The translations under genes were made by a program, and so were the position numbers. Shown here one piece after another: positions 11,659-48,409 of a DNA stretch of 64,000 nt; the first letter of the stretch is position 1; every line of letters begins with the position of its first letter. Below the pieces are notes generated by a model that made no database searches, was not told the origin of the DNA, and worked only from the letters and a program-made list of their open reading frames with translations. Origin of the DNA: a virus (taxonomy: Duplodnaviria; Caudoviricetes); IMG/VR virus record IMGVR_UViG_3300047564_001818; one strand, 5' to 3'.

Positions 11659-12388
11659 CGATTAACCTTTCAAAGTCAGATAGTTTTATCATGTTAGGAC
11701 CATCCGACGGTGCGTTGTCTGGATCAGGATGTACTTCTAAAAAGAAGTTTGTAATCCCAAGAGCACTTGCTGCCCGGCAAAGGCTAGGAACATAAGAACG
11801 ATTGCCATCGCTGCTAGTTCCTCTGCCGCCTGGCTTTTGTACACTGTGCGTGGCGTCGAAAACAATAGGTACGGTAAAGTTATCAAGCATATAGTTAATG
11901 CCGGTAAAATCAACAACCAAGGTATTATATCCAAAGCTAGTTCCCCTTTCAGTTATCCAAACTTCTTTTGCATCTGTACACTTACTTAGTATTCCTGCCA
12001 CATCCCATGGTGCCAAAAACTGACCTTTTTTGATATTAACAATACAATCTGTAGCACATGCTGCCTGTATTAAGTCTGTTTGCCGGCACAAAAAGGCAGG
12101 TATCTGTAGCACATCAACAATGTCTTTTAACCACGCAATTTGGTCTTTTTCGTGTACGTCTGTTAATACCTTTACATTTAATATGTCTTTTAGTGCTAAG
12201 ATATCATGTATAAAAGGATGTAGTCCTACACCACGTTTACCGTTAGCACTAGTACGATTGGCTTTGTCAAAACTTGCTTTGAAAATGTATTCAATATTAT
12301 ACTTGTCACACACCCGCTTACATTCACGTGCAATCTCTACACTCTGTGCTAGTGTTTCATGCTGGCACGGTCCTGCTATAATTCTCAT
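11627..12388 (-). CDS. kdsA: Kdo-8-phosphate synthase
   Basis: IAGPC, FDKANRTS, QIPAFLCRQTDL, NIKKGQF, DATHSVQKP, SDGPN. Confidence 0.95.
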   Translation of the reverse strand: MRIIAGPCQHETLAQSVEIARECKRVCDKYNIEYIFKASFDKANRTSANGKRGVGLHPFIHDILALKDILNVKVLTDVHEKDQIAWLKDIVDVLQIPAFLCRQTDLIQAACATDCIVNIKKGQFLAPWDVAGILSKCTDAKEVWITERGTSFGYNTLVVDFTGINYMLDNFTVPIVFDATHSVQKPGGRGTSSDGNRSYVPSLCRAASALGITNFFLEVHPDPDNAPSDGPNMIKLSDFERLIDEIHRYSYTG

Positions 12389-12741
12389 ACTCGAGTACCT
12401 ATAGTTCTTCTTACAATGTCATCGTGGGCGAATTCAGCCCAATACAGTTCAAATGCCACACCATCCTCGAGACCTTCGAACTGATGAATCTTACCTGGCT
12501 TGACTTGTGTAAAGTCGCCAGCTTCGAGAACAGTTTCATCTACTAGTCCTTGCTGCTCAGCATCTTGCCAAACACGTACCAACATCTTACCAGATTCAAC
12601 AAAGAAACCATTCCACTTAAATTTGTGTTCATGTTCTGAACATTTGTATCCTGCTTTGAATTCAATACGATGAAATTCTAATACACCGTTGGCATGTATT
12701 AGTTCAGTGTTACCCCATACTTTACCAGCTTTAATTCCCAT
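12385..12741 (-). CDS. cupin, type II phosphomannose-isomerase-like
   Basis: KVWG, SEHEHKFK, PGKIHQF metal-binding cupin motifs; coupled to kdsA. Confidence 0.75.
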   Translation of the reverse strand: MGIKAGKVWGNTELIHANGVLEFHRIEFKAGYKCSEHEHKFKWNGFFVESGKMLVRVWQDAEQQGLVDETVLEAGDFTQVKPGKIHQFEGLEDGVAFELYWAEFAHDDIVRRTIGTRV

Positions 12742-12751
12742 AGTGTTTTCC

Positions 12752-13258
12752 TTACAATAACAATGAATAATCTATTAATTCACACTGTCTGCTGATATCT
12801 TTTACAAAATAAGCACACAGTGGATTCTTTCCTTCTGTAAGTGGAACACTTAATAGTTGCCCGTTCTTCATTTTAGGAAAGTACCATTTTACATCTGTAT
12901 AAAAGTTAGTGACTTTTATATTTCCAAACTCAGTTTTAAAACTACTGAGGGGATTAAAAAGAAAAGCTTCAAACCCTCTATCGTTCAAACTAGTTAACGG
13001 CAATATCTCTAGATCGTTTCCTGATTCACTACAGCCTACTGCTAAACTCCAATCTACAGGCATTGTGATTTCTTTGCCTGCTATTTCTAATACCATTGCC
13101 GGTGCATTGAACGATTCTAAAAATATTAACGGTACAAAAAAGAAATCAGGATTTTTTGGGTCCGAATTATCTAGTACTGAAAATCTTATATCTTCATCAA
13201 TTTGGTCAGGCAAGTCGTCTAGATTAAAACACTTGTTTTCTAATGTTAGTATTCTCAT
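12752..13258 (-). CDS. hypothetical protein
   Basis: 168-aa ORF, operon position downstream of uvsW. Confidence 0.7.
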   Translation of the reverse strand: MRILTLENKCFNLDDLPDQIDEDIRFSVLDNSDPKNPDFFFVPLIFLESFNAPAMVLEIAGKEITMPVDWSLAVGCSESGNDLEILPLTSLNDRGFEAFLFNPLSSFKTEFGNIKVTNFYTDVKWYFPKMKNGQLLSVPLTEGKNPLCAYFVKDISRQCELIDYSLLL

Positions 13259-13264
13259 TTAAAT

Positions 13265-14728
13265 TTAATTCCAATCTACCTTTTCTATGGTAAATGGGTA
13301 TTGAGCTTCCTTGTAAAACTTCTTTCGTTCGGTAAGGTGCCGCTTCGCATACTTGCACGTTGATGTCAAGTCCCATATTTGTACGAAGTCTTTGTCTTTT
13401 GCCTTTCTAACGCCTCTACCGATTGATTGAATTACTCTAACAAAACTTTTACCCGGTTCAAGCAATACAAGATTAAAAATACGCGGAATGTTAAGTCCAA
13501 CCGCAGCAACACCATACGTAGCAATAATTACTTCGTTTGTGCCTTCTCGAATTGTATCGTATGTTTCTTTTCTGTCTTTTACTTTAACAGCACCGCTAAC
13601 AAATGTGCTGCCGGGTATGAGTTTTTGTAACTCTTCGCCTGCCGAAATTCTGTCTACAAGTATTAGAGTGTTGCCTGATTCTTTAACCGTGTTTAATAAT
13701 TTGCCTATATATTCTATACGTTCTTTGTTTGTAACCAAATATTTTAATTCGTCTTGATAACCTCTGTGCGCTACTGTATCAATCAACTGTACAATATTAA
13801 CATGACAGTCTGCTAGCACACCTTTATCCTGTAGTTCTTTTGCTGTAATCTGTCCAATAACCGGTCCAAGGCTTGCGTGAATACTTTCAAACTCAAACTT
13901 CTCTTTGGGCACTGTACCAGTTAGTCCCCAGCGAATAGGAGCGTTACGCAAGTTACGGGTAAGTAGATTTTTTAGTACTTCTGCTTTGGCTTGGTGTACT
14001 TCGTCAACAATAACTGTGCTTACACCTTCCAAGAACTCTGCTAGGCTTAGCACTGCATCACCGTCTTTGTGACGCTTATCAAGAATGTTTAAACTTTGCC
14101 AAGTACAAATTGTGTGAGTTTTGCCCAACTGCTTTCTGTCACCAAAATACACACCCACATCAAGGCCGCAGTTGATATAATCTTCTTCAGTTTGTTCAAC
14201 CAAGCTTTTGTTAGGTACAATAACAAGACTGCGGCCATATGGTTCGCTAATGTGACTTAGAGTTGCTGTGGTAATAGTTTTACCTGCGCCAGTAGCAATC
14301 TGCTGTAGACTTTGAGGATTAGCAATAAAGTTGTTGATTGCTTCAACTTGATAATCACGCAACATAATTAACTCGCCTTCAGCAGGGTGACCCTTAGGCC
14401 AGCGTACATCTTGATCGGCCCAATAGGTTTCAGTGACAGGTGTAAAGTTTATCTGTATAGGATGTCTGTTATCCTCAATGTCTGCAATCTGAACATTGTT
14501 CTTTTGTAGAATGTCAATGATAACATCAAGGTGATTGACGTAACCGGTGCCGCCAATACCAAAGAACGCAACCTTGCCGTCCCATCGCCCTAGCTTAAAC
14601 TGAGGCATGTGTTTTGCATATGGCACTTCAAACTTTAGTGCATTTGCAAGTTTACGACGAACGTCAACATCAAGTCCTTCAAACTTAATGTTTACTTCGT
14701 CTTCAATAATTAACTTACACGTGGCCAT
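13265..14728 (-). CDS. uvsW: SF2 DNA helicase (UvsW-like)
   Basis: LRDYQ, ATGAGKT, DEVH, GLTGT, QSIGRGVR; start placed at MATCKL. Confidence 0.9.
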   Translation of the reverse strand: MATCKLIIEDEVNIKFEGLDVDVRRKLANALKFEVPYAKHMPQFKLGRWDGKVAFFGIGGTGYVNHLDVIIDILQKNNVQIADIEDNRHPIQINFTPVTETYWADQDVRWPKGHPAEGELIMLRDYQVEAINNFIANPQSLQQIATGAGKTITTATLSHISEPYGRSLVIVPNKSLVEQTEEDYINCGLDVGVYFGDRKQLGKTHTICTWQSLNILDKRHKDGDAVLSLAEFLEGVSTVIVDEVHQAKAEVLKNLLTRNLRNAPIRWGLTGTVPKEKFEFESIHASLGPVIGQITAKELQDKGVLADCHVNIVQLIDTVAHRGYQDELKYLVTNKERIEYIGKLLNTVKESGNTLILVDRISAGEELQKLIPGSTFVSGAVKVKDRKETYDTIREGTNEVIIATYGVAAVGLNIPRIFNLVLLEPGKSFVRVIQSIGRGVRKAKDKDFVQIWDLTSTCKYAKRHLTERKKFYKEAQYPFTIEKVDWN

Positions 14729-15938
14729 AATATTGTGAATATCTCCGCATAGGGCTGAGCATGTCTTCTCTATACACAACTAGATCGCATCTGTTGTAAA
14801 CGTATGCGTCTACTGTACGATCTAGTTTGCTGGTATAACTAAAAGTTGCACAAGGTTGCCATTCGCTGTTGATCAACAGTTTAGGTAACTTGTCACTGCT
14901 AATATATACTATTTTTGTGTTGTTGTCAACCCAGTTGTTGAGTTTGCGATCTTTGACTAGTGTATTAAAACTGCTGTCGCCTTCTTGACGGAATAAAACA
15001 CTTTGCGATTCTGTAGGCAATATGTCTCTATAAAAGTTAGTTAAATCGTGTAGTTGATGTTCTGCATATTGACGATCAAGAATCACTAGCATCGGAAATC
15101 TCTGTAGATTCCACAATGCAAGTAGTATGTCAGATAGAGATTGTTCACTGGGTTTGCTTTGATAGCTAACATCATCTCTATATGCAATTGACTCTGTTAC
15201 TGATCTAGGATCAACAACTTCAACTTTTTCAATACCGTATCTGTGTCTTCGATCAATGTACAACAGCGCAGTTGATTGATCAAATGCTCCGATTTCTTTC
15301 TCTGCAACAGTTTGTGCATTAGGATGTAAATTTTTTAATTCGCCTTGATAAATGCCAGGAACATAATCCTGTTCACAGCAGCGAATGTCTACAATCTTTT
15401 GATAAATGTCTACAAGTTCACTATCAATTTTATAGTTTTTATCAACGAATCTGCTCAGCAGATTATACACATTGATTTCGTTTAGTACAAAATAATGTTC
15501 ATGTGTGCCTTTACTGTGATAATAATCTTTAGTATTGTTAATCTGATCAATCAGTGCTATATCTGATTTTTTAAATGGAAATCTAATTTTGATATACTTA
15601 CAACGTTCGTCAGCAGGATATGGAATATTTTCAGGATGATCTACTACAGTAATATATTTGCTGCGATCGATTTCACGCAGAGGATTGCGCAGTTTTTCTA
15701 ACGCACGATCAAATCCTATAACATCTTGATTTTCAAACTGCGATTTGTACTTGAGCAGTTTTTCTTTCATAAGAGTGTATTGACGATCTGTCATAGCAGT
15801 ATTACGAAAAACTTGACGAGCAACACTTTCTATGATTGAACGATCGCTTACGTCAACGTTAAATGCGAGATTATGCTTTTGAAGTCCTGACAGGATTTCA
15901 AGACAATCTTCTATTGTGTGTATACCTATTTTCTGCAT
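14715..15938 (-). CDS. hypothetical protein
   Basis: Long ORF with own promoter, overlapping the uvsW start. Confidence 0.75.
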   Translation of the reverse strand: MQKIGIHTIEDCLEILSGLQKHNLAFNVDVSDRSIIESVARQVFRNTAMTDRQYTLMKEKLLKYKSQFENQDVIGFDRALEKLRNPLREIDRSKYITVVDHPENIPYPADERCKYIKIRFPFKKSDIALIDQINNTKDYYHSKGTHEHYFVLNEINVYNLLSRFVDKNYKIDSELVDIYQKIVDIRCCEQDYVPGIYQGELKNLHPNAQTVAEKEIGAFDQSTALLYIDRRHRYGIEKVEVVDPRSVTESIAYRDDVSYQSKPSEQSLSDILLALWNLQRFPMLVILDRQYAEHQLHDLTNFYRDILPTESQSVLFRQEGDSSFNTLVKDRKLNNWVDNNTKIVYISSDKLPKLLINSEWQPCATFSYTSKLDRTVDAYVYNRCDLVVYREDMLSPMRRYSQYYGHV

Positions 15939-15944
15939 ACACAC

Positions 15945-15973
15945 AATATAACTTAAAAAAGCTTGTGTGTCAA
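15945..15973 (-). promoter_or_regulatory. sigma70-type promoter
   Basis: TTGACA-17-TATATT. Confidence 0.7.
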
Positions 15974-16828
15974 CTGTTTAAGTGGTAGGCCTTGTGCTAT
16001 TTCTTCCGCAGTCCATTCTGTATAAGCATAATCGTTTAACCATTGTGTTCTGTCTAGCATCAACGGATTTTCTATGTCGTGTAAGAAATCTATGTCGTTG
16101 GCTACATCATAAGCAAGGCTATGATTACTAACAAAGCTAGGAATCCCGTTGATAACACTGTGTATGCCAGGATTGCTACTCCAATTAATAGTAGCAAATA
16201 TATTGTCAAAAGCCATATTAAAATCGTCGTAAGTACCGTCAATGTGCTGTGGTTCCTGTCTGTACACATATTTAAGTCCGTGTTCTATATCAGGTAATCT
16301 ACATCTAGGATGTGGACGAAATATAATAGGCCTAAGTGTATGCTTGCGTATTTCAGTATAAACTTTTAAAAACCAGTTGCTTATACTGGGTTGATTTTGC
16401 CATTGTAAGCTCTTATCGTGTTGCCCAGCAATAAGAATGTATTCTCCAGTTGTACGCCAAGGCTTAACTGTTAGACCTAGTGTCTGCGCTCTCTCTCCAG
16501 TATTTCCGCTATCACAGAAGTAGGCGTCGCGGTTGATGCCATTAAGGCCGACCTTCCACGTTGTGCCTCTTTGTATGCCCCCCACTTCAAGAACAATGAT
16601 AGGTTTATTACTAGCAGTGACAGCGTTCCAGATATTACGATTGCTAGCCATGCGGCCGTGAAATAAAACACTCCAAATAACATGAACATCGGAATCGACA
16701 TAATTAGTAGAATTGGAAATAATACCACCACTGCTAGTAACAGCATTAGCAAAGGCATCAAAAACAGGACGTGAATTAAGCGCACCGTATTCTCTCCACA
16801 GTTTAAATTTTTTGCCAGTAAGGTTCAT
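15953..16828 (-). CDS. capsule-synthesis (KpsS/KpsC-like) glycosyltransferase
   Basis: GQHDKSLQ, IFRPHP, NWSSNPGIHSVINGIP. Confidence 0.6.
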   Translation of the reverse strand: MNLTGKKFKLWREYGALNSRPVFDAFANAVTSSGGIISNSTNYVDSDVHVIWSVLFHGRMASNRNIWNAVTASNKPIIVLEVGGIQRGTTWKVGLNGINRDAYFCDSGNTGERAQTLGLTVKPWRTTGEYILIAGQHDKSLQWQNQPSISNWFLKVYTEIRKHTLRPIIFRPHPRCRLPDIEHGLKYVYRQEPQHIDGTYDDFNMAFDNIFATINWSSNPGIHSVINGIPSFVSNHSLAYDVANDIDFLHDIENPLMLDRTQWLNDYAYTEWTAEEIAQGLPLKQLTHKLF

Positions 16829-17651
16829 TTCTATGACCCATTAGATCTTTGCATTTACTAGCGCCTTCAAACTTGCGATCGCCTTTCATGTGATCCATCC
16901 AACGTCCTAGTTTACTATTGATCAATGGATGGCCGCCGCCGCCTGTTTTAGCAGTATTTGACAAGTATATTTCAGCTGAATAATCTAATACATTAGGTGC
17001 TGTTTGTTTCATATTTTCTAATATATGGCCAAAAACAAAACTGTCATGCCATTCATCTAACATAAAGATCCCATTCTCTGCATCTTTATACATTCGTTCA
17101 AACTCTGTTAAAAATTCTTGACACACTGGGTCTTTTAGATTCATTCCATAAAACCCACACTCAGGCCAAGTCTGACTTCCTTTACCTCGACCTACATATG
17201 TAATCCAACTGGTATTAGGAAGCAGATCACAAAAATCATTATAATCCCACGGTGAGTGTATAAAACTGTCAGCATCCATCCATACACACCAGTCTATTGA
17301 ACGTTCGCAAGCATCAAACACAGCATATACTTTGTTGGCAAATCTTACTGCGTCCCATTTAAATTCTTTGTTCCAGTCTCTTAGTCTGCGTTCTGGCCAC
17401 GGACATTTACCATTTGCTTTAGGCACATCCTTCCATTGTTCTTTAAATGCATTTAATTTTGGTAATGATTTTTTAGCATCTAATATTTCTATACGCATAG
17501 GATCAGGGTTATTAGGCATGCAATCTTCAGCATAAACTAAAAGTTTAATTCGTTTGTCTACGTGTCTAGCAAAGCTATCTAAAAATTTTTCTCCATAAAC
17601 ACTATAATGTTTGTTATGAAAGGTAGTTACTACTGTAATGTGTTTTGTCAT
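16803..17651 (-). CDS. GT-A-like glycosyltransferase
   Basis: RFANKVYA, WMDADS DxD motif; ATGA coupling to the upstream gene. Confidence 0.7.
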   Translation of the reverse strand: MTKHITVVTTFHNKHYSVYGEKFLDSFARHVDKRIKLLVYAEDCMPNNPDPMRIEILDAKKSLPKLNAFKEQWKDVPKANGKCPWPERRLRDWNKEFKWDAVRFANKVYAVFDACERSIDWCVWMDADSFIHSPWDYNDFCDLLPNTSWITYVGRGKGSQTWPECGFYGMNLKDPVCQEFLTEFERMYKDAENGIFMLDEWHDSFVFGHILENMKQTAPNVLDYSAEIYLSNTAKTGGGGHPLINSKLGRWMDHMKGDRKFEGASKCKDLMGHRNEPYWQKI

Positions 17652-18580
17652 TTTTTGGCCCAATTCCTTAGATGCTTCCATGCAGTTCCGTCTTTGAGTT
17701 CGCTTAAACTCCAGTGCATTTGTGCCATTTTCTTTACCCATAATTCTCTATCGAATTCTTTAATATTTTCTAATCGTGACAAATCATGATGAGAAACTTC
17801 AGCTGCTTGACTGTGCTTTGGATCAAGCACGAATGTAGGTACACCTTCTATAGCCGCGGCCACTGCTGGACTTGAATTATAATTTATTACTGCGTGTGCA
17901 AACTTAAAATCCTGAAGTATGCTTTCGTTATGACTAATAACTACGTTTGATAACCTATATCTTGCTAAAGATCTTTTATGAGTTAGCACATTTTTATCGC
18001 CTGGATGAAATCTTACTATTATACGTCTATCGCTATATTTCCTGATGTCAGTTACAGTTTTTACCAACCAAGGTAATAGTTTATTATCTCCCATGCTCCA
18101 ACCTCCGTCTCGTTGACAACAGATTAGTATGTCCTTACCTGTTTTCTGTAACGGTTTGAGAGTTAGGTTAAGATTCTTACTAATTGTTTCCCATCTTTCA
18201 GGATCAGGATTGCTATTACAGTATTCTCCTGTATTAGGAAAAATACCGTCATAACTGTATCTCAAATAACCTCTGCTGTTGCCAGAGTCTGCATATAAAA
18301 AGAGATTACTGTCAACAATAATGCTTCTTTTACCATCTCGCTGTTGTTTTTCAAATACTTCTTTTCTTAGATTAAGGTGAGGTACATTTTTGCTACCAGG
18401 ATGTACATAACCTTGTACAACAGCTACATCAGCATCGATGGGATTGTAATCAGTTACTATAGTTCCTTCATCGCCGCAGCGCCATACACCTTCTATAAAA
18501 TTTACAATAATAGCAGGCTTTTCTGGATTGGTATTTCCTGGCGGAATGCCCATTAAGTACGACGCTACTTTAGTAGTCAT
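17648..18580 (-). CDS. capsule-synthesis (KpsS/KpsC-like) glycosyltransferase
   Basis: VRFHP, NYNSSPAVAAAIEGVP. Confidence 0.6.
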   Translation of the reverse strand: MTTKVASYLMGIPPGNTNPEKPAIIVNFIEGVWRCGDEGTIVTDYNPIDADVAVVQGYVHPGSKNVPHLNLRKEVFEKQQRDGKRSIIVDSNLFLYADSGNSRGYLRYSYDGIFPNTGEYCNSNPDPERWETISKNLNLTLKPLQKTGKDILICCQRDGGWSMGDNKLLPWLVKTVTDIRKYSDRRIIVRFHPGDKNVLTHKRSLARYRLSNVVISHNESILQDFKFAHAVINYNSSPAVAAAIEGVPTFVLDPKHSQAAEVSHHDLSRLENIKEFDRELWVKKMAQMHWSLSELKDGTAWKHLRNWAKK

Positions 18581-19383
18581 TTTAGATCATACTCCTCTAT
18601 TAATCGCATTGCAGTTCCATTTAGCATTTCTTCAGGAGTATACTGACAGTGTCCTAGCCAATGCTGCCATTTAATTACTTTGGATTCATCTTCATACAAC
18701 GGTGTTTCTATTTTGCTAAGATCTTTTAAACAGAAAGGATCTGCTGCATTTGGTGCAAGTGTAAAACATGGAATACCGTAACCTATTGCTTCAGTGGCTG
18801 CTATACTGTTGTACGTAACTACAGCAAATATACCGTCTTCTTCAAATTGATTGTATATGCTCTTATCACCTGTTCGATCTTTTCTTAGGCCTTTATTTCT
18901 TATTATAATTTTTCTATCAGTGTGTTTGGTTAATTCTGTAATAGTATTTTCTAACCATTCGTCTCTGTTTATACCGTAAAAGTTACAAGGTTTATCGCTA
19001 GGAGTAACAATTAAAATATTATCTCCATCTTTTCGCCATTTATTAAAACGCACAAATTCTTGACCATTAATTATAAAATTAAATCGATTGTCTGGCAAAT
19101 CGTATCTAATATTAGAGTGTTGCATTCCGTTTTTTACCACACGATGCCAGTCCTTTCTTTTAAATAAATTTCCGTAATAACCTGTGTCTATATAAAAATA
19201 ATCTCTATTTGTTTTAACGCATTCTGATACAGTTTTACGCTGAGCCATACTTCTAAAAATAACAGGAATATCCTTGTTGAAATTCTTTAAATCTTTATAG
19301 GTAGATATAGGAGTTGCGTTGACAGACTTAGCTAGACATCCAACAATAGCATCATTTACATCAATGGCTAACATGTCAGTCAT
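18577..19383 (-). CDS. capsule-synthesis (KpsS/KpsC-like) protein
   Basis: TYNSIAATEAIGYGIP; HP motif replaced by RNK. Confidence 0.5.
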   Translation of the reverse strand: MTDMLAIDVNDAIVGCLAKSVNATPISTYKDLKNFNKDIPVIFRSMAQRKTVSECVKTNRDYFYIDTGYYGNLFKRKDWHRVVKNGMQHSNIRYDLPDNRFNFIINGQEFVRFNKWRKDGDNILIVTPSDKPCNFYGINRDEWLENTITELTKHTDRKIIIRNKGLRKDRTGDKSIYNQFEEDGIFAVVTYNSIAATEAIGYGIPCFTLAPNAADPFCLKDLSKIETPLYEDESKVIKWQHWLGHCQYTPEEMLNGTAMRLIEEYDLK

Positions 19384-20053
19384 TCATCATTGCCTGTAAT
19401 TCTTCTTTCCATATTTCATGGAATTTGCAGTTTCTATAATGTTCAAACCAAGGACCGCCTTCGGTATAATGAATTAGGTTAGGAACATCAATATCATCAT
19501 ACACACCTACTAGATAATTCCAAGTATGATCTAGAGATCCAATTTCTTCATCTTTTAACCAGCTAAATCTGTGTAGATAGGCACCAGTTATGCTAGGATC
19601 GTTAACTAGTTCTTTTGTAAGCTGCTTGTTACTAGGATGACTGCAATTGATAAGCATAGCACTCGACCAATTTTTGCGTGGGTAAACAGTCTGTTTTTGA
19701 CCGTCCATCTTTGTGCCTTCTGCCACAGCGTAATCATGCTGAACACACATTACAGCATAACGATCGTCTGCTTGATCAAACAATTCTTTGATGTCTGTAG
19801 TGAGAATCATATCACAATCCATAAACAATGCCCAACCACTAAAATCAGTTAGTTCAGGAATAAGGAAACGAGTAAACGTAAATTCTGTGCTTGCTAGTTT
19901 GTCAACATCTCTCCAATACATGCCCTGTTCTCTGAGCTCAGGTTGCTTCAACGGAACAACTTCTGCTGCAGGTTGTCTACTTATAATACTATGCTTGCAC
20001 ACTTGATATGCAATGTCTTCTCTACTGTCCCATCCTACAAATATTTTCATCAA
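19376..20053 (-). CDS. GT-A glycosyltransferase (GT8-like)
   Basis: IFVGWDSRE, TEFTFTRF, FMDCDM, RKNWSS, HYTEGGPW. Confidence 0.85.
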   Translation of the reverse strand: MMKIFVGWDSREDIAYQVCKHSIISRQPAAEVVPLKQPELREQGMYWRDVDKLASTEFTFTRFLIPELTDFSGWALFMDCDMILTTDIKELFDQADDRYAVMCVQHDYAVAEGTKMDGQKQTVYPRKNWSSAMLINCSHPSNKQLTKELVNDPSITGAYLHRFSWLKDEEIGSLDHTWNYLVGVYDDIDVPNLIHYTEGGPWFEHYRNCKFHEIWKEELQAMMND

Positions 20054-20826
20054 TCTCTTCTTTCAATATCTTCTTCTATACATTTATCACCATATTGTAC
20101 TTCTAATATATGGCAAGGCTGGTCTGTTTCATTAATAGCTTTGTGCCAAACTTCGACGCCAACAACATAGGTACTGTTTTGATAAAGGTGTTGGGAGTCT
20201 TTGCGATTGTTAAATTCAGTATCCATTCTAAGGGTTCCACTTAGAACATACCAGTGTTCAGCTCTAAAACTGTGCCGCTGATCTGATAGACTACACATAG
20301 GATTTATTACAAGTTCTTTTACTTTAATTCCTTGATTGGGTTTGTCATCCAGTACTCGCCAATATCCCCAAGGACGTTCAGTTTTTTGTGTGCGCCAGCT
20401 ATCTAATATCCAGCTTGATGAATTACGTTTATCTTCGCCGCCGATGCCCCATGCAAACTCTAATCCATAGGTATTTTTGTACAATTCATATTCAGGAGTA
20501 GTACCGTTATTTCTATCTCCGCCGTTTGCAAATATTACAGTATTGCTTTCTCCGTAGGTGCTTAACATTTTGTAGATAGCATGGCAAGCTGTTCCGTCTT
20601 CGTCGTTAAATGCAACAACATCATCTACCATTTTGAGATTTTTTATAATAGCTGCACGTTCTTCCCACGGCATAAAAGGACGACCTTTTTTTCGAGCAAG
20701 CCAAGCATCACTGTTTAAACCAACAACCAGGCGATCGCCCAAATGTCGCGCTGCTTTAAAATACTCAATGTGTCCTGAGTGTAGAGGATCAAAGCCTCCT
20801 GTTACAAGTACTATACGTTTGTTCAT
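20050..20826 (-). CDS. cytidylyltransferase-like nucleotidyltransferase fused to a PMI-type cupin
   Basis: GGFDPLHSGH, GLNSD, FANGGDR; C-terminal RPWG...RAEHWYVLSG...EEDIER. Confidence 0.85.
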   Translation of the reverse strand: MNKRIVLVTGGFDPLHSGHIEYFKAARHLGDRLVVGLNSDAWLARKKGRPFMPWEERAAIIKNLKMVDDVVAFNDEDGTACHAIYKMLSTYGESNTVIFANGGDRNNGTTPEYELYKNTYGLEFAWGIGGEDKRNSSSWILDSWRTQKTERPWGYWRVLDDKPNQGIKVKELVINPMCSLSDQRHSFRAEHWYVLSGTLRMDTEFNNRKDSQHLYQNSTYVVGVEVWHKAINETDQPCHILEVQYGDKCIEEDIERRD

Positions 20827-20831
20827 ACAGA

Positions 20832-20839
20832 TATTTATA
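20832..20839 (-). promoter_or_regulatory. T4-type late promoter heading the glycosyltransferase operon
   Basis: exact TATAAATA 5 nt upstream of ATG. Confidence 0.7.
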
Positions 20840-20854
20840 TGAGCAGTTAATTGG

Positions 20855-21379: not shown

Positions 21380-21975
21380 TAAAAAACTTCCTTTATAAGA
21401 TCTTGATATGTAATTAAAGGTAGATCATATACGTTTTTTTCATAAAATGTCCATGAATTTTCGACATTAAATTTTTTAGGAACTTGAGATTCTTTTTTTA
21501 TAAATCCACATCCTTCATCTATTAACACTAATTTAAATAAAATGTCTTCTCGAGATGCTAGATCAAAACTTAATCTCCATACATCCCCTAGCCATGTTTT
21601 AGGAAAAGGATCGGGAATAGGAACAACAGCTTCGTCTTGGATTCTAGGTAACATGTCATGAATTATTATTATTCCATTATCGTTCAAACAGTTTAAAGAA
21701 TTTTCAAAATCCTTTAATACCTGTTCATAATAATGTAATCCATCTATAAATATCACATCAAAGGTGTCTGTATTTTGAAGGAAAAATTCATCACTAGTCA
21801 TTCTTCTATTTCCACCTTGAACGGGATCAACACCAATTTTGTAACTGCATTTTGCGTTGTTAAAAATTTTATCTTTAAAGCAACCTATTTCTAAATATTT
21901 TTTTGCGTTTGTTTTGTCAATAGACAAATTAATCAAATCTAACCTAGATTCGTTAGTAAATGAAAAGTTAAGCAT
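21379..21975 (-). CDS. class I SAM-dependent methyltransferase (Methyltransf_24-like)
   Basis: YLEIGC, FDVIFIDGLH, IIIIHD. Confidence 0.85.
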   Translation of the reverse strand: MLNFSFTNESRLDLINLSIDKTNAKKYLEIGCFKDKIFNNAKCSYKIGVDPVQGGNRRMTSDEFFLQNTDTFDVIFIDGLHYYEQVLKDFENSLNCLNDNGIIIIHDMLPRIQDEAVVPIPDPFPKTWLGDVWRLSFDLASREDILFKLVLIDEGCGFIKKESQVPKKFNVENSWTFYEKNVYDLPLITYQDLIKEVF

Positions 21976-22870
21976 TTAACATTTCCTTAATATATTCTTC
22001 GATGTTTTTAGTAGGCTGCCAACCAAATGTTTCTTTTAATTTATTATTATTAGCAAGAGTTTCCTTTGCTTCACCTAATCTAGAATCAATAAAAACAGTG
22101 CTTTTACTAATCATGTCTGCTAATTCAAGAACACTATAATTTATACCGGTTCCTACATTAAACACAGTTCCATAAAGATTGTGATCGTCATGTGTCATTG
22201 CTAACATATTAGCAGAAACAACGTCGTCTACATGTGTAAAATCTCTACGCTGTGTTCCAGGAGGCACAATTGTTAATGATTGTCGAGCTTTAAATTGTCT
22301 AATAAAAAGTCCCACAACAGGAGCATATGGACCCTTTAATGGTTCTCTCGGGCCGTACACATTAAAATATCGAAAAATAATAGTCTTTAGACCAAAAAGA
22401 TCTGTATACATTTTACAAAGTTTTTCACCGGCAACTTTTGATACACTGTAGGGATTTAGGCAATCATCTGGCATAGTTTCGTTAAGTGGAGGATTGTTTA
22501 TTCTTCCATACCCTGAACTAGTACTACTGTATATAACTTTTTTTACGTTAGCTTCTCTAGAACATTGTAATACCGTTGCAGTACCTAACGTATTAGTTTT
22601 AACAGCAAGTAAAGGATTGTTAATAGACGGTTGTATTCTTGATTCTGCTGCGCAATGAAATACATAATCTACATTTTCATAAAGTGTTCTTGTATTTTCG
22701 TAATCAGCTATATCTAATTTGTAGTATTTTGCTTTGTTATTATAATAAAAATTATTGTGTACTTGAGATGTTTCGTTGTCTATAACAGTAACTTCATAAT
22801 TATCATTTACTAGTTTATCAACAATATGAGAGCCAATAAAGCCGGCGCCACCAGTAACTATACATTTCAT
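21968..22870 (-). CDS. NAD-dependent nucleotide-sugar epimerase/dehydratase
   Basis: TGGAGFIG, YSVSK (YxxxK), RYFNVYGP, RDFTHV. Confidence 0.92.
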   Translation of the reverse strand: MKCIVTGGAGFIGSHIVDKLVNDNYEVTVIDNETSQVHNNFYYNNKAKYYKLDIADYENTRTLYENVDYVFHCAAESRIQPSINNPLLAVKTNTLGTATVLQCSREANVKKVIYSSTSSGYGRINNPPLNETMPDDCLNPYSVSKVAGEKLCKMYTDLFGLKTIIFRYFNVYGPREPLKGPYAPVVGLFIRQFKARQSLTIVPPGTQRRDFTHVDDVVSANMLAMTHDDHNLYGTVFNVGTGINYSVLELADMISKSTVFIDSRLGEAKETLANNNKLKETFGWQPTKNIEEYIKEMLNA

Positions 22871-22896
22871 TTTTAATCCTTGATAAATTAACTGTG

Positions 22897-22915
22897 TATT
22901 TATCTCCAATAAATA
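22897..22915. promoter_or_regulatory. back-to-back late promoters
   Basis: TATTTAT (22897-22903, minus) and ATAAATA (22909-22915, plus). Confidence 0.55.
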
Positions 22916-22934
22916 TTACTTTAATGAGATCTCA

Positions 22935-35069: not shown

Positions 35070-35070
35070 G

Positions 35071-40393: not shown

Positions 40394-40515
40394 ATTAATT
40401 CTCCTGTTGGATAGTTCAATTATCTAACAGTATTTAGTTAATCTCATTTAAAAAAGCCCGTATAACAGCCTGGAAAAGGGGTCGAAAAGGTTAGTTTCGC
40501 GAAGTTAAATACAAT

Positions 40516-40851: not shown

Positions 40852-41343
40852 ATACTTCATTAACTGAGCGAGATTAAACTCTAGTTCTTCTAATGTGCCG
40901 TTGTTATCTAATGTAAAATCAGACATCCACTGCTCTAGACTCATACTAGTAGGCGCTTCTAGTGGCAAATGATCTGATCTGTCAACCCAAACTGCATAAT
41001 CAAACACACCGGTGTTTCGCATGGCATGAAATTCACGTTTGTTGCGCAAGCCGCAGTAAATATCATGCGCAGCGAATATTTCTCTGCCTAAACGACTTGC
41101 ATCAGGAACATTATAAGCGCAGATAGCATCATACCATTCTGCTCTGTGATTGTGCCTGTCAGCATAGCACTCTTCTTCATTATAATATCCATATTTGTCC
41201 TTTAGCATGTCAAAGATAAAAAGTTTGCTACAAAACTGGCTGCTACTCTCGAAACTATAGCTATATTTGTCTTTCAGCATTTCGCACACAGTATCTTTAC
41301 CGTGGCGGCCGTGACCTATTACTAACAGTTTAAATTTATGCAT
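40834..41343 (-). CDS. deoxynucleoside monophosphate kinase-like P-loop protein
   Basis: GHGRHGKDT, WYDAI, GLRNKRE, LDNNGTLEEL. Confidence 0.75.
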   Translation of the reverse strand: MHKFKLLVIGHGRHGKDTVCEMLKDKYSYSFESSSQFCSKLFIFDMLKDKYGYYNEEECYADRHNHRAEWYDAICAYNVPDASRLGREIFAAHDIYCGLRNKREFHAMRNTGVFDYAVWVDRSDHLPLEAPTSMSLEQWMSDFTLDNNGTLEELEFNLAQLMKYLEVRG

Positions 41344-41363
41344 TGCTACCTCTTTGTGTTTTT

Positions 41364-41393
41364 ATTATATAGCACAAAGAAGAAACTTGTCAA
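41364..41393 (-). promoter_or_regulatory. sigma70-type promoter
   Basis: TTGACA-18-TATAAT. Confidence 0.65.
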
Positions 41394-42373: not shown

Positions 42374-42390
42374 GCGAGTTCTCCACACAG

Positions 42391-42411
42391 TATTTATCGC
42401 AGCGATAAATA
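42391..42411. promoter_or_regulatory. palindromic divergent late promoters
   Basis: TATTTATCGC-A-GCGATAAATA perfect inverted repeat. Confidence 0.8.
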
Positions 42412-42416
42412 TGTAT

Positions 42417-43580: not shown

Positions 43581-44992
43581 TGCTTCACTTCTACGATGGA
43601 CAACTTAGACGCTACACCACACAGATGATGCGTATACTCAGCAACTTTCCTGTCAAAGACGGCAGGGGCATCATCAAGCAAGTGCCTGTAATGTATGGTG
43701 ATCTTACTCGTCAAGTAGCTAACATTATACGTGAAAACTCAGAAAACAAGCTGCCTAGTGCGCCTAGAATATCAGTCTATATTACTGGGTTAGAACTAGA
43801 TAAAGAACGACTAACTGATGCTACTTATACTCGTAGAACCAATATTAGAGAACGTGCATACGACGAACAAAACAACGAATATCTTAACTACCAAGGCAAA
43901 AACTACACAGTAGAACGCCTTATACCTACACCTTATTTGATGAGATTGAACGCTGATATATGGGCATCAAACACTGATCAAAAACTTCAGTTGCTAGAAC
44001 AGATACTGGTGCTGTTTAATCCAAGTCTTGAAATGCAAACCACTGACAACTTCATAGACTGGACCAGTATCACAGTGGTTAATCTTGAAAATGTTACATG
44101 GTCAAATCGCAGTGTACCTGTAGGTGTAGACAGTGAAATAGACGTAGCAACTCTTACTTTTAGTATTCCTATCTATATTAGTCCGCCTACTAAAGTTAAG
44201 AAAATGGGTGTTATTACAAACGTTATTACTTCAATGTTTGACGAAACTAGAGGTACTATCGAAACTGGTGTTAGTACTCCCGAGCTTAATCAATACGACG
44301 ATTTTGCAAAATCTGGTGTTGCAGTTAATGAGTTTGGCGTACGAGCACAAACTGAGATTGCTGAACAAATGGCCAATGTTAATTATAATACCTATGGTGT
44401 ATACTTAGAAAACGGATCAGCACAGTTGATTGCAAGAGGTGTAGTTGGCAGCGTTAACTGGCGAGAAATATTCGAAGCACTGCCCGGTTTTTATAGAGCT
44501 GACGTAAGTCGTATCTATCTAACCAGTATAGACAACGGTAACACTGTAACAGGTACTTTCACACTTAATCCATTCGATGAAGGTAAGATCGAAGTAAACT
44601 TTGATACTGACACTTTTCCAACTGACAGTGTTATAGCGGGCAGAACCAGTATAGATTATATCATAGATCCTACTAGATTCAATCCAACCAGTATAAAAAC
44701 AGCAGGTCTAAGACTGTTGTTGTTAGAAGACGTAGGATCCGTAGAAGCAGTAGAAGTAGCTGCGGCATGGCGTAACAACGATAATACAGGTCTTGTTGCT
44801 AGTGCTAACGATATAGTTGAATGGACAGGCACACGCTGGAATATAGTATTTGATGCTAGTGCTACAACTGAGCTGACCTATACCACTAATTTAAACACCA
44901 GCATACAGTATAGATTTAAAGACGGCGAGTGGTTCAAATCAATAGACGGCGACTACTCAGTTGGTACTTGGCGAGTTGAACTAGACGGCTAA
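43580..44992 (+). CDS. tail terminator / sheath stabiliser (gp15-like) with C-terminal extension
   Basis: HFYDGQLRRY, VPVMYGD, LPSAPRISVY, LLEQILVLFNP. Confidence 0.8.
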   Translation: MLHFYDGQLRRYTTQMMRILSNFPVKDGRGIIKQVPVMYGDLTRQVANIIRENSENKLPSAPRISVYITGLELDKERLTDATYTRRTNIRERAYDEQNNEYLNYQGKNYTVERLIPTPYLMRLNADIWASNTDQKLQLLEQILVLFNPSLEMQTTDNFIDWTSITVVNLENVTWSNRSVPVGVDSEIDVATLTFSIPIYISPPTKVKKMGVITNVITSMFDETRGTIETGVSTPELNQYDDFAKSGVAVNEFGVRAQTEIAEQMANVNYNTYGVYLENGSAQLIARGVVGSVNWREIFEALPGFYRADVSRIYLTSIDNGNTVTGTFTLNPFDEGKIEVNFDTDTFPTDSVIAGRTSIDYIIDPTRFNPTSIKTAGLRLLLLEDVGSVEAVEVAAAWRNNDNTGLVASANDIVEWTGTRWNIVFDASATTELTYTTNLNTSIQYRFKDGEWFKSIDGDYSVGTWRVELDG

Positions 44993-45000
44993 CTATTTGT

Positions 45001-45441
45001 ATGAATGACAGGATAGTTTGTAGCGGTGCTCTCTTTTATACACTAGACACCAATCGTTTTTTATTTTTACATCGTAGTCAAGGCAAGCGAGCAGATCTTT
45101 GGGGGCTAGTCGGCGGTACTAACGAAGCCTGTGAAACACCCTGGGAAGGCTTGCAAAGAGAAATACGAGAAGAAATAGGTCAGTTGCCTAAGATTAAAAA
45201 AACATTGCCTCTAGAAAGCTTTGTTAGTACAGACGAAAAGTTTCATTTTCACACATATTTGTGTATAGTAGAGCATGAGTTTATTCCTATACTAAACAAC
45301 GAACACAACGGTTATGCTTGGTGTAGTTTTAATAAATGGCCCAAACCTTTACATCATGGACTTAAGAATACACTTCAAAGTCGCGTCAATCTTCGCAAGT
45401 TAGAAACTGTATTTCAAACTATAAATCTTCTTGACTCTTAA
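45001..45441 (+). CDS. NUDIX hydrolase
   Basis: GGTNEACETPWEGLQREIREE Nudix box. Confidence 0.85.
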   Translation: MNDRIVCSGALFYTLDTNRFLFLHRSQGKRADLWGLVGGTNEACETPWEGLQREIREEIGQLPKIKKTLPLESFVSTDEKFHFHTYLCIVEHEFIPILNNEHNGYAWCSFNKWPKPLHHGLKNTLQSRVNLRKLETVFQTINLLDS

Positions 45442-45459
45442 TAGGTTAGAACATATAAT
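45431..45459 (+). promoter_or_regulatory. sigma70-type promoter for the heptose operon
   Basis: TTGACT-17-TATAAT. Confidence 0.75.
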
Positions 45460-45465
45460 ACTCTT

Positions 45466-46605
45466 ATGAAAGTCTTAGTTATTGGCGATATTATTATTGA
45501 CAAGTACATCTACGGAACAGCTACGAGGTTAAGTCCAGAAGCGCCTGTGCCTATAGTCAGTCAAACACAAACTTCTCAATCATGGGGAGGTGCTGGTTTA
45601 GTTTATGAAAATCTCAAAAGCTTAGGTGTAGATGTTGCACTGTATGACTACGATCAGCCTAAAAGCATAAAAACTCGTGTCGTTTGTGACGGTCATTATG
45701 TCACACGCATAGATGAAGATTTTTATGCTGACGGTTATGAAATACTTGAAGAACTACAAGAATACCCTTTTGATAGATATGACATTGTTATACTAAGTGA
45801 TTATAATAAAGGTGTGTTAGATTTTAGTGAACAGATTATAGAACTTGCAAACAGTGCAGGATGCCGTATTATCGTTGACCCTAAACGTCAAGCAAGTGCG
45901 TACACTGGTGCTTGGTTAGTTAAACCCAATCGCAAAGAATATGACGAACTGTCGTTTTCTAAATGGCTAGGAAATATTGTCACTACCAGTGCCAGTAAAC
46001 CTGTAATAGCTAAAATAGATGGTAAAGAATACTCTGTATCTGTTGATCCAGTAGAAGTGGCAGATGTTGCTGGCGCAGGAGATTGTTTTCTAGCTGCATT
46101 TGTATATGGATTGACCAAGAGTTATGATTACAAAACCTGTTTAAAAATAGCTGTGAGAGGATCGACTGCTAGTGTAAAACATAATGGCACCTATATTCTA
46201 AAAATAGAAGATATAGAAGATAAGATTGTTTTTACTAACGGTGTGTTTGATATATTACACAAAGGTCATCTAGAACTGTTGAAAAAAGCTAGAAGCTTAG
46301 GTAGTAAGTTAATAGTTGGTATCAACTCAGATGCTAGTGTTAAACGTCTCAAAGGTGAATTAAGACCTGTCAACAATCAAACTGCTCGCATGGAACAGTT
46401 AAAAGCATTACCTTGGGTTGATGCTGTTATAATATTTGACGAAGATACCCCCTACGAAACTATCTATTATCTACAGCCAGATCTTATTGTTAAAGGTGGC
46501 GACTATACTGTAGATCAAGTAGTAGGTAATGATCTAGCAGAAGTATATATTTTTCCTACCATAGAAGGCTATTCAACTACACGAATTATAGAGGCGAGCA
46601 AATGA
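45466..46605 (+). CDS. hldE: bifunctional heptose-7-phosphate kinase / heptose-1-phosphate adenylyltransferase
   Basis: RLSPEAPVP, LSDYNKG, DVAGAGD; FTNGVFDILHKGH, GINSDASV, KGGDY. Confidence 0.92.
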   Translation: MKVLVIGDIIIDKYIYGTATRLSPEAPVPIVSQTQTSQSWGGAGLVYENLKSLGVDVALYDYDQPKSIKTRVVCDGHYVTRIDEDFYADGYEILEELQEYPFDRYDIVILSDYNKGVLDFSEQIIELANSAGCRIIVDPKRQASAYTGAWLVKPNRKEYDELSFSKWLGNIVTTSASKPVIAKIDGKEYSVSVDPVEVADVAGAGDCFLAAFVYGLTKSYDYKTCLKIAVRGSTASVKHNGTYILKIEDIEDKIVFTNGVFDILHKGHLELLKKARSLGSKLIVGINSDASVKRLKGELRPVNNQTARMEQLKALPWVDAVIIFDEDTPYETIYYLQPDLIVKGGDYTVDQVVGNDLAEVYIFPTIEGYSTTRIIEASK

Positions 46606-47198
46606 ATTATGATTTTATCGAAATAGGTACATCTGATTTTAGTTCTTTAATAGAAGAAGCAGATAATACTACCATTGGAATCTCAATAGAACCTATTAAA
46701 TATTATTTAGATCGATTACCTAATCCAATTGGAGTTAAGAAACTGAATTGCGCTGTTTCGTTAGATGGTAAATTAGGTCAAGCTAAACTTTATTATATAC
46801 CAGATAAGAGAATTAAAAAATATAACTTACCGTGGTGGATTCGTGGTTGTAATTCAATAAACAACTATCATCCTAAACATCAAGAATTAAAGATACAGCA
46901 CTTAGTAACTGTAATTGAAGTTAACACTATTCCCCTTGCAGATATTTTACAAGAACACAATGTTGAAGAAATAAAAATTCTTAAAATAGACACCGAAGGA
47001 GCAGACTGTTTTATTCTACAGTCTTTTATTGCTACATTGCAAATAAGACCTAAGCTATTTTGGCCAAAGCAAATTCAATTTGAAAGCAATAGTTTAACAG
47101 AGACATCGGTAATTGACGAGACAGTTACTCTTTATACTAATTTAGGATATAAAGTAGTTAAACCCGATGAAGAAAATACTATATTACTATTAGAGTAA
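46602..47198 (+). CDS. FkbM-family methyltransferase
   Basis: FIEIGTSDF, SIEP, LKIDTEGAD. Confidence 0.75.
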   Translation: MNYDFIEIGTSDFSSLIEEADNTTIGISIEPIKYYLDRLPNPIGVKKLNCAVSLDGKLGQAKLYYIPDKRIKKYNLPWWIRGCNSINNYHPKHQELKIQHLVTVIEVNTIPLADILQEHNVEEIKILKIDTEGADCFILQSFIATLQIRPKLFWPKQIQFESNSLTETSVIDETVTLYTNLGYKVVKPDEENTILLLE

Positions 47199-47202
47199 GC
47201 AA

Positions 47203-48021
47203 ATGAGAATACTAATAACAGGACATAAAGGATTTATCGGATCAAATATAGCACAATATCTGTTGTCAAAAGGGCACGATGTAGAAGGCTGGGAATATAC
47301 GCCTGGCGTTGTACCTAATACAGAAGACTATGAATGGTGCGTTCACACCGGTGCTATTAGTTCAACTACTTACACAAACGTTGATCAAATACTAGAACAA
47401 AACTTTGAGTTTAGTGTTCGTCTAGCACAGGTATGCGAAAACTTTGGTACTAATCTGCAATACGCTTCAAGTGCTAGTGTGTATGGTCCTACTGATCATT
47501 TTAAAGAAGATGGGCCGCTATTACCGCAAAGTCCTTATGCTTGGAGCAAATATTTGTTTGATAGATTTATCAATCAATTTCGAGACGAGTTTGAAATAAC
47601 AATACAGGGCTTTCGCTATTTTAATGTGTATGGACCAGGTGAAAGTCACAAAGGTGATCAAGCATCACCGTATACTAAGTTTACCAAACAAGCTACAGAA
47701 AACGGTGTTGTTAAACTGTTTGAAGGTAGTGAAAACTTTGCAAGAGATTTTGTATGCGTAGAAGACTTGTGTGCGCTACATGAAAAAATGTTTGATGTAA
47801 CAGCAAGTGGGATATTCAATGCGGGCACAGGTCGTGCAACCAGCTTTGACACTGTGGGCCGCGCAATAGCCAAAAAGTACGGCGCTGATCTACAGTATAT
47901 ACCCATGCCAGATGCATTAAAATCGCAGTATCAAAAATATACCTGTGCAGATTTAACCAAACTAAATTCAGTTGTAGATCAGTCTTGGACATCAATAGAG
48001 GATTATATAAATGGAAAATAA
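47203..48021 (+). CDS. hldD: ADP-L-glycero-D-manno-heptose 6-epimerase
   Basis: GHKGFIGSN, GAISST, YASSASVYG, YAWSK, GESHKG, QYQKYTCAD. Confidence 0.88.
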   Translation: MRILITGHKGFIGSNIAQYLLSKGHDVEGWEYTPGVVPNTEDYEWCVHTGAISSTTYTNVDQILEQNFEFSVRLAQVCENFGTNLQYASSASVYGPTDHFKEDGPLLPQSPYAWSKYLFDRFINQFRDEFEITIQGFRYFNVYGPGESHKGDQASPYTKFTKQATENGVVKLFEGSENFARDFVCVEDLCALHEKMFDVTASGIFNAGTGRATSFDTVGRAIAKKYGADLQYIPMPDALKSQYQKYTCADLTKLNSVVDQSWTSIEDYINGK

Positions 48022-48409
48022 CGAGCCTACTAGACTCAGCGGAGTAGTTAAAAAAGGATGGGGTTACGAACTGATTTGGGCTACTACAGACAAATACTGC
48101 GGTAAGATCATGGTTTTCGAACGTGCAGGTGCTAAATTTAGTATGCATTTTCATCGTGAGAAGGACGAGACTTGGTTTGTAAATACTGGAAGATTTTTGG
48201 TAAGATGGATTGATACTAAAACTGCTACTCTACACACTCAAGAACTAAAGGAAGGCGAAACTTGGCATAATCCTCCACTACAACCGCATCAACTAGAATG
48301 TATAGTTGCAGGTTCTAGTATCACAGAAGTTAGTACAGCCGATAGTGTAGAAGACAATTATCGAGTTTTTTCCGGTGACAGTCAAAAAACGGATGTTAGT
48401 AATGGTTGA
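48011..48409 (+). CDS. cupin, type II phosphomannose-isomerase-like
   Basis: KGWG, SMHFHREKDETW, PLQPHQL, EVST. Confidence 0.78.
   Translation: MENNEPTRLSGVVKKGWGYELIWATTDKYCGKIMVFERAGAKFSMHFHREKDETWFVNTGRFLVRWIDTKTATLHTQELKEGETWHNPPLQPHQLECIVAGSSITEVSTADSVEDNYRVFSGDSQKTDVSNG

Follow-up and report, generated by a model that had tools for sequence, protein, structure and literature searches.

A largely viral monocupin as a candidate sedoheptulose-7-phosphate isomerase in phage heptose modules

We analyzed a 64,000-nucleotide stretch of DNA from a tailed virus (Caudoviricetes; IMG/VR record IMGVR_UViG_3300047564_001818), hereafter the window, which harbors a heptose gene module, a 3-deoxy-D-manno-octulosonate (Kdo) gene module and three cupin-domain genes, named here cupin1, cupin2 and cupin3 (Table 1). 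Cupin2, the monocupin of the heptose module, is likely a sedoheptulose-7-phosphate (S7P) isomerase that replaces GmhA, to judge from its sequence and the genes that accompany it. An earlier, sequence-only reading of the window had proposed that cupins act as non-orthologous replacements for two missing sugar isomerases of the SIS-domain type, GmhA and KdsD. Comparison with related phages argues strongly for the GmhA half of this proposal and only weakly for the KdsD half. The GmhA replacement stands out because the cupin is an invariant member of the module, because it occurs fused to enzymes of the pathway, because no SIS gene is found and the hosts are poor in GmhA, and because the Caulobacter phage Cr30 displays the reciprocal pattern.

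The HldE, HldD and GmhB proteins of the window all score below the equivalog cut-offs (274 bits versus 521, 232.8 versus 274.6 and 130.6 versus 178, respectively) and belong to the right families; their domain architectures fit the pathway to ADP-L-glycero-beta-D-manno-heptose. The gene for cupin2 overlaps hldD by 11 nucleotides and lies between hldD and gmhB in a module devoid of gmhA, as the sequence-only reading had it. A search of the six frames of the window (phmmer with the --max option), using Escherichia coli GmhA, KdsD and KdsC and the GmhA of phage Cr30 as queries, gave a best E value of only 0.25. That reading had also proposed to look for SIS genes beyond the window, a check that we ran on relatives. 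Profile searches with PF13580 and PF01380 produced no SIS match in five long relatives, one of which is 357 kb long and rated 100% complete, and none in the complete genomes of the cyanophages P-SSM2, S-CAM1, P-TIM68 and Sf-CH8. Counted by record, these two profiles were negative in nine related viral entries and in the four complete cyanophage genomes.

The association of cupin2 with heptose genes is invariant in the related loci. Cupin2 directly follows hldD in all 80 IMG/VR loci, in a block ordered nudix-hldE-(fkbM)-hldD-cupin2-(gmhB). Few proteins of this block are as well conserved as cupin2: its identity is 75-86%, against 41-72% for hldE and 49-83% for hldD. Distant lineages with reordered modules retain the cupin, in arrangements such as kinase-nucleotidyltransferase-cupin-gmhB-hldD, kinase-cupin and nudix-cupin-gmhB. 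Three of the five long relatives have cupin2 together with a full hldE, and the other two lack both. Close homologues of cupin2 number in the thousands in aquatic metagenomes. Of note, hldE is split into separate open reading frames (ORFs) in the 357-kb relative (G001:C1:71251-72397), with the adenylyltransferase ORF placed before the kinase ORF; the kinase match has three in-frame stops and therefore may be broken or mis-assembled.

Gene fusions provide a second line of evidence. At least 10 clusters (90% identity) are made of proteins of about 256 amino acids in which an HldC-type nucleotidyltransferase domain (PF01467) is joined to a cupin domain 61-75% identical to cupin2. In another fusion, P0366, a cupin2 domain is joined to a complete HldE domain II that shares 37% identity with residues 253-375 of the window HldE, and two further proteins (P0272 and P0323) combine a HAD phosphatase with a cupin. 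These fusions tie cupin2 to the heptose pathway, since the partners are enzymes that handle heptose phosphates.

A third line of evidence comes from cultured phages. A tblastn search placed homologues of cupin2, 32-41% identical to it, in 35 phage records of GenBank, of which every named one is a cyanomyovirus. P-SSM2, S-CAM1, P-TIM68 and Sf-CH8 carry the cupin with an HldC-type nucleotidyltransferase, a PfkB kinase, an HldD-like epimerase and a protein of about 110 amino acids. The latter is labeled 'phosphoheptose isomerase' in databases; it has no SIS or Pfam match and displays the four HAD motifs DIDGT, TAR, GKP and IDDKG, and we therefore interpret it as a mini-HAD phosphatase. The database labels of the cupin itself are 'cysteine dioxygenase' or 'putative nucleotidyltransferase'. 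The labels of both proteins look wrong. With these corrections, the cyanophage modules comprise a kinase, a phosphatase, a nucleotidyltransferase, an epimerase and a cupin, the one gene without an assigned step, and no SIS isomerase. The cyanomyovirus heptose set (T4-GC 303-308 in P-SSM2) resembles that of the window in placing a homologous cupin (32-38% identity) by a nucleotidyltransferase, kinase, phosphatase and epimerase, and differs from it in having a split hldE and a mini-HAD protein instead of GmhB. In P-TIM68, gp190 (L174:2935-4080), a transketolase-like protein with E1_dh and Transket_pyr domains, is encoded directly upstream of the heptose kinase, which fits a module drawing on S7P.

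The hosts of these phages are a poor source of GmhA. Of 151 sampled genomes from the picocyanobacterial family, reached via ferredoxin, 121 had no GmhA-like match and none had a match above the TIGR00441 cut-off. Since most picocyanobacterial hosts have no GmhA-like gene, the modules of cyanophages would be left without a substrate if the phage did not bring its own isomerase. Furthermore, Sf-CH8 infects Synechococcus WH8102, whose lipopolysaccharide contains neither heptose nor Kdo according to a passage in PMC4515613 that cites Snyder et al. 2009. The converse situation is observed in the T4-like phage Cr30, where a heptose kinase gene adjoins that of a true SIS-type GmhA, 32% identical to E. 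coli GmhA. Cr30 is not among the tblastn matches of cupin2 in GenBank phages, and is thus a case of GmhA without cupin. A search of IMG/VR with the Cr30 GmhA returned Cr30 itself as sole match.

The predicted active site of cupin2 is compatible with this role. Its metal site, H46/H48/E53/H93, is invariant among nine canonical relatives (alignment A2), and so are K15, K32, K51 and R118, residues that may bind phosphate. The protein scores 26.1 bits against the Cupin_2 profile, just below the 27.2 cut-off, and weakly matches the WbuC cupin family (TIGR04366, 1.6e-3). Its AlphaFold2 model is a confident all-beta monocupin barrel, with a predicted local distance difference test (pLDDT) score of 91.3. 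More than 140 cupins of the PDB match this model at Z >=8 (VIA). The top match is the cupin domain of CapF (Z 15.8, root-mean-square deviation (rmsd) 2.3 A over 120 residues), below which unrelated cupins abound at Z 13-14, among them a phosphomannose isomerase (PMI) from Thermococcus, at Z 14.0, and an isomerase of D-lyxose, at Z 13.5. D-lyxose/mannose isomerases are the structural neighbors most identical to cupin2, at 20-22% (22% for the Z 13.5 match). We also observed a subgroup of cupin2 relatives, P0278, P0284, P0330 and P0376 (alignment A1), in which the metal ligands are lost, with YFH, YFN or VFN in place of HFH and PCS in place of PHQ. These are probably non-catalytic paralogues.

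Cupins are known to catalyze aldose-ketose isomerization in PMI, in cupin phosphoglucose isomerase (PGI) and in lyxose/mannose isomerases. PMI-type cupins convert fructose-6-phosphate to mannose-6-phosphate through a His/His/Glu/His metal site, and the GmhA and PMI reactions both turn a 2-ketose phosphate into a manno-configured aldose phosphate. We propose that cupin2 is a metal-dependent aldose-ketose isomerase that would convert S7P into D-glycero-D-manno-heptose-7-phosphate, the step usually performed by GmhA. From this product the phage's own enzymes, the kinase-adenylyltransferase HldE, the phosphatase GmhB and the epimerase HldD, would yield ADP-heptose, probably destined for a phage-directed glycan. 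Cupin2 holds the slot upstream of HldE, GmhB and HldD that is otherwise filled by GmhA (SIS_2, TIGR00441, EC 5.3.1.28) and would perform the same reaction; the alpha/beta SIS domain of GmhA, however, is unrelated in fold to the metal-binding cupin barrel of about 130 amino acids and has no sequence similarity to it. D-lyxose/D-mannose isomerases (2y0o, 7nzo, 3kmh) and cupin PGI (1j3p) resemble cupin2 in being metal-dependent, with a His/His/Glu/His site; they differ from it in size (170-230 amino acids) and genomic context and, in the case of lyxose isomerases, in acting on unphosphorylated sugars. Type II PMI cupins (PF01050; C-terminal domains of AlgA, XanB and ManC) and the archaeal monocupin PMIs (7zvy, 7zvm) have the same fold as the phage cupins. 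All of them have in common a WG...HxH/QxH...E...H signature, and the reactions, known or proposed, fall into one stereochemical class, in which a 2-ketose phosphate yields an aldose of manno or arabino configuration.

The third cupin of the window is the one closest to PMI. As previously noted, it is fused to a nucleotidyltransferase; its supposed relatedness to the other two, however, holds only between cupin1 and cupin2. The latter are 29% identical (E value 5e-7), both match phrog_7851 and are, on this sequence evidence, paralogues. BLAST comparisons of cupin3 with cupin1 and with cupin2 detect no similarity, and superfamily membership alone is common to them. The C-terminal domain of the cupin3 protein passes PF01050 (64.7 bits versus a 23.6 cut-off), a profile matched by neither cupin1 nor cupin2, although some of their relatives do match it, and inspection reveals a PMI-like site, Q183/H185/E190/H228. 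Cupin3 is a genuine type II PMI-type domain. The N-terminal domain is similar to HldC and to HldE domain II, and its nearest solved relatives are enzymes of the cytidylyltransferase fold, including 5x9q. Each of the five long relatives has a homologue of this fusion (about 258-274 amino acids), even the two that lack hldE and cupin2. Its architecture parallels the independent nucleotidyltransferase-cupin2 fusions and may be compared to bifunctional enzymes joining PMI to GDP-mannose pyrophosphorylase (PMI-GMP), whose logic of isomerase plus nucleotidyltransferase it would repeat. Unlike in PMI-GMP, the partner in both cupin3 and cupin2 fusions is of HldC type (PF01467) and not of GMP type, and the substrates proposed for the phage cupins are C7 and C5 sugars.

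Two other readings of cupin2 have to be weighed against S7P isomerization. In the main rival, cupin2 would act on a nucleotide sugar, as a CapF- or RmlC-like epimerase or keto-isomerase working with HldD to produce a modified ADP-heptose, the first step being left to the GmhA of the host. CapF, an NDP-sugar C3-epimerase, is a fusion of a short-chain dehydrogenase/reductase (SDR) to a cupin (2zkl); its cupin domain is the best structural match of cupin2, which also has an SDR alongside, is translationally coupled to hldD in the window and weakly matches WbuC. However, CapF stands only about 1.6 Z units above unrelated cupins, is 13% identical to cupin2 and acts on a UDP-4-keto sugar, whereas the fusions and neighbors of cupin2 point to sugar-phosphate steps. 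Other lineages place the cupin beside a HAD, nucleotidyltransferase or kinase gene, cyanophage hldD lies on the opposite strand, and the cupin is fused to HAD phosphatases and nucleotidyltransferases but never to an SDR. A division of labor with the host is also difficult to reconcile with the scarcity of GmhA-like genes in picocyanobacteria described above. We consider this nucleotide-sugar reading improbable. More improbable still, in our view, is that the cupins are ordinary PMIs feeding GDP-mannose-derived glycan sugars in a neighborhood of heptose and Kdo genes that would be incidental. The PF01050 score of cupin3, the resemblance of cupin1 to small Thermococcus PMIs, the name 'mannose-6-phosphate isomerase-like' given to homologues by JGI and a GDP-mannose-dehydratase-like SDR at 21968-22909 all agree with such a role. 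But cupin2 keeps its heptose-type context in every one of the IMG/VR loci, co-occurs with hldE and is fused to heptose-type rather than GMP-type nucleotidyltransferases, and neither a phosphomannomutase nor a GDP-mannose pyrophosphorylase was seen in the window.

Several observations weigh against the reading of cupin2 as an S7P isomerase. The absence of SIS genes covers the 64-kb window and the relatives, and the host of the phage may itself supply GmhA and KdsD. Foldseek and VIA searches with the models of cupin1 and cupin2 yield generic cupin matches only, from which a substrate is not assignable; for cupin2, the scores of quercetinases, KdgF and oxalate decarboxylases are roughly on a par with that of CapF. 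In a sequence search of the PDB, cupin2 drew nothing beyond weak matches to oxalate decarboxylases, and cupin1 had no match. Finally, the cupin2 family is nearly all viral, and single-protein scans of bacterial genomes returned solely phage-like contigs binned into metagenome-assembled genomes; the mutual exclusion of cupin and GmhA therefore rests on few independent lineages and on a single reciprocal case.

The Kdo half of the proposal fares differently. Of the set KdsD-KdsA-KdsC-KdsB, the window encodes a KdsA above cut-off and a KdsB just under it, and neither KdsC nor KdsD. The sequence-only reading was right that this module is without kdsD and that a cupin gene is coupled to kdsA: the stop codon of cupin1 and the start codon of kdsA overlap in an ATGA (12385-12388), and the six-frame search was negative for KdsD. 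The likeness to KdsD/GutQ/KpsF (SIS plus CBS domains, TIGR00393) lies in this position directly upstream of kdsA, a place in which a source of arabinose-5-phosphate (A5P) would be of use. Adjacency of cupin1 and kdsA recurs in at least three synteny contexts, that is, behind the helicase gene and a conserved 168-codon gene (u168), behind uvsX and w24887, and in contigs with neither. Cupin1 also has K42, Q87, E98, D108 and R111 in common with the cupin2 family. Its AlphaFold2 model is an all-beta barrel (pLDDT 89.8).

Other findings, taken together, count against a role of cupin1 in place of KdsD. With KdsC also missing, the Kdo module is not self-sufficient and the absent KdsD therefore needs no replacement; the reasoning that pairs a missing gene with a spare one works for heptose and fails for Kdo for this reason. 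Cupin1 does not depend on kdsA for its occurrence: all five long relatives encode cupin1 but only three encode kdsA, G003 and G005 having cupin1 without it, and among 65 cupin1 loci with sufficient downstream sequence kdsA is present in 45 and absent from 20. Where both occur, the gap is 8-17 nucleotides in only 8 of the 45 loci and otherwise ranges from 0.2 to 2.9 kb. The site H37/H39/N44/H86, although invariant, corresponds only in part to the His/His(Gln)/Glu/His site of isomerases, since Asn44 stands for the metal-ligand Glu that is the proposed base of cupin isomerases. KdsD and its relatives further differ from cupin1 in fold. We regard it as doubtful, on sequence grounds, that cupin1 is an A5P isomerase substituting for KdsD.

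There is close to an even chance that cupin1 is instead a core phage enzyme unrelated to KdsD function, either a KdgF- or NanQ-like tautomerase/anomerase of deoxy-ulosonic acids (for example, Kdo), an isomerase of another sugar made in the glycan island, or a 3-His oxygenase. Consistent with a core function, cupin1 is 85-93% identical across relatives, compared with 64-91% for the adjoining helicase and 45-69% for kdsB, and it outnumbers kdsA in the long relatives. In two loci (L070 and L073), cupin1 is followed by genes for FkbM, an NT-cupin3 homologue and GT8 in the place of kdsA. The invariant His/His/Asn/His site agrees with this reading, and the closest superposition of the model is with KdgF (7zyc), at 20% identity and an rmsd of 1.3 A over 102 columns. 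Small Thermococcus PMIs of about 110 amino acids also lie near (TM-score 0.75-0.79, normalized on the PMI chain). On the other side stand the recurrent adjacency to kdsA, the ATGA coupling in the window and the retention of Lys, Arg, Asp and Gln positions of the cupin2 family; for an oxygenase, a context providing the co-substrate of a dioxygenase is not evident. Cupin1 probably serves a glycan island as an isomerase or tautomerase of sugars or sugar phosphates, a broad reading that is more likely than the specific one of an A5P isomerase. It would be a diverged paralogue, with Asn for Glu, at the head of this variable island.

The island itself deserves description. The region downstream of cupin1 is a hot spot of variable glycan genes, and the long gaps between cupin1 and kdsA are filled with genes for a Vut_1/YhhQ transporter, SDRs, methyltransferases and a UDP-glucose dehydrogenase. 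The Vut_1/YhhQ-type transporter gene is found between cupin1 and kdsA in ten relatives (for example, L066:2139-2855). In 45 related loci (for example, L005:3301-3666), kdsA is directly preceded by a small ORF that overlaps its start, truly codes for about 85 amino acids and has no Pfam match; this ORF is absent from the window, where cupin1 holds that position. The constraint on cupin1 (window and L002-L081) is unusually strong for a small accessory-looking enzyme.

Overall, the explanation that we find best, and hold somewhat less firmly than the role of cupin2 taken separately, is that cupin2 is an isomerase, cupin1 a diverged paralogue and cupin3 a PMI-type fusion. A more ambitious scheme would see in one largely viral family of monocupins of about 120 amino acids a second class, unrelated in structure to the first, of both S7P (cupin2) and A5P (cupin1) isomerases, with cupin3 bifunctional, by which aquatic jumbo phages build heptose and Kdo glycans from pentose-phosphate intermediates independently of host lipopolysaccharide genes; we think this scheme unlikely.

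All catalytic activities given here for the three cupins are inferences. A full-text literature search returned no relevant paper on a cupin acting as A5P or S7P isomerase, and the pelagimyophage paper mentions neither Kdo nor cupins. NDP-heptoses are agonists of innate immunity, and their biosynthetic enzymes have been cataloged across kingdoms, viral enzymes included, with isomerases of the GmhA type only and no cupin isomerase (PMC11573728). If cupin2 is an isomerase, the missing first step of ADP-heptose synthesis would be filled in thousands of aquatic phages, including P-SSM2, and a non-orthologous enzyme class would be added to EC 5.3.1.28. A widespread misannotation of the cupin and of the mini-HAD phosphatase would be corrected as well. 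Phages of heptose-free hosts would then make their own NDP-heptose, presumably for virion or cell-surface glycans. The same would apply to KdsD if the Kdo half were true, a claim that present evidence does not justify.

Table 1. Coordinates of the cupin genes, of their neighbors in the window and of the mislabeled cyanophage genes
Feature	Coordinates	Strand	Supporting match or remark
kdsB-like CMP-Kdo synthetase	10981..11658	-	PF02348 (CTP_transf_3) 6.3e-30; NF003952 179 bits, under cut-off 193
kdsA, Kdo-8-phosphate synthase	11627..12388	-	NF003543 340.5 bits vs cut-off 242
cupin1 (P0001), 118-aa monocupin	12385..12741	-	Cupin_2 (PF07883) 28.5 bits vs cut-off 27.2
Conserved 168-aa gene (u168)	12752..13258	-	phrog_11279; anchors cupin1 beside UvsW-like helicase
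NT-cupin3 (P0003), nucleotidyltransferase-cupin fusion	20050..20826	-	PF01467 9e-15; TIGR02199 2.9e-22; PF01050 1.1e-17
Nudix hydrolase, head of heptose module	45001..45441	+	phrog_1198 2e-23; syntenic across related loci
hldE, heptose-7-phosphate kinase and heptose-1-phosphate adenylyltransferase	45466..46605	+	NF008454 1.7e-81; PfkB and CTP_transf_like domains
FkbM-family methyltransferase, inserted in heptose module	46602..47198	+	PF05050 9.6e-12
hldD-like ADP-heptose 6-epimerase	47203..48021	+	TIGR02197 5.2e-69
cupin2 (P0002), 132-aa monocupin, candidate S7P isomerase	48011..48409	+	phrog_7851 7.5e-34
gmhB-like heptose-1,7-bisphosphate phosphatase	48375..49031	+	NF006506 4.6e-38
Mini-HAD gene labeled 'phosphoheptose isomerase' (P-SSM2_311)	L172:5655-5999		
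Mini-HAD gene labeled 'phosphoheptose isomerase'	L173:5673-5996		
Mini-HAD gene labeled 'phosphoheptose isomerase'	L174:6360-6698		
Mini-HAD gene labeled 'phosphoheptose isomerase'	L001:7652-8002		

The window is part of a T4-like myovirus, with genes for a tail sheath (phrog_10581, 7e-244), a large terminase, a gp32-like single-stranded DNA-binding protein, a UvsX-like recombinase and a UvsW-like helicase. Megablast and blastn searches of the window against GenBank phages gave no match, and a search for an exact 44-mer was likewise negative in IMG/VR and in metagenome contigs. Five ORFs without Pfam match occupy positions 14715-19383, between the helicase gene and a GT8 gene.

We also looked for bacterial support for the Kdo claim in a sample of 301 genomes from one phylum. 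This sample gave mostly PMI-GMP enzymes of about 500 amino acids, together with a few standalone cupins near a KdsC-like phosphatase; the corresponding cluster, which comprises a GatZ-like aldolase, a HAD protein, a cupin and a kinase/nucleotidyltransferase, has no kdsA and belongs to a different sugar-nucleotide pathway, and we rejected it as support. A bacterial operon (L194:182-9161, genome G175) encodes a B12-radical SAM protein, GT2 glycosyltransferases, a KdsC-like HAD protein, a GatZ/KbaZ-like aldolase, a PMI-type cupin, a nucleotidyltransferase-kinase fusion and a methyltransferase, and represents a pathway of the sugar-nucleotide type; its cupin1-like protein shows about 30% identity. 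Lastly, a Nol-like carbamoyltransferase gene is found near the heptose genes in the window (56541-58331), in P-SSM2 (L172:2741-4543) and in S-CAM1 (L173:2906-4588), a linkage that suggests a carbamoylated heptose or glycan.

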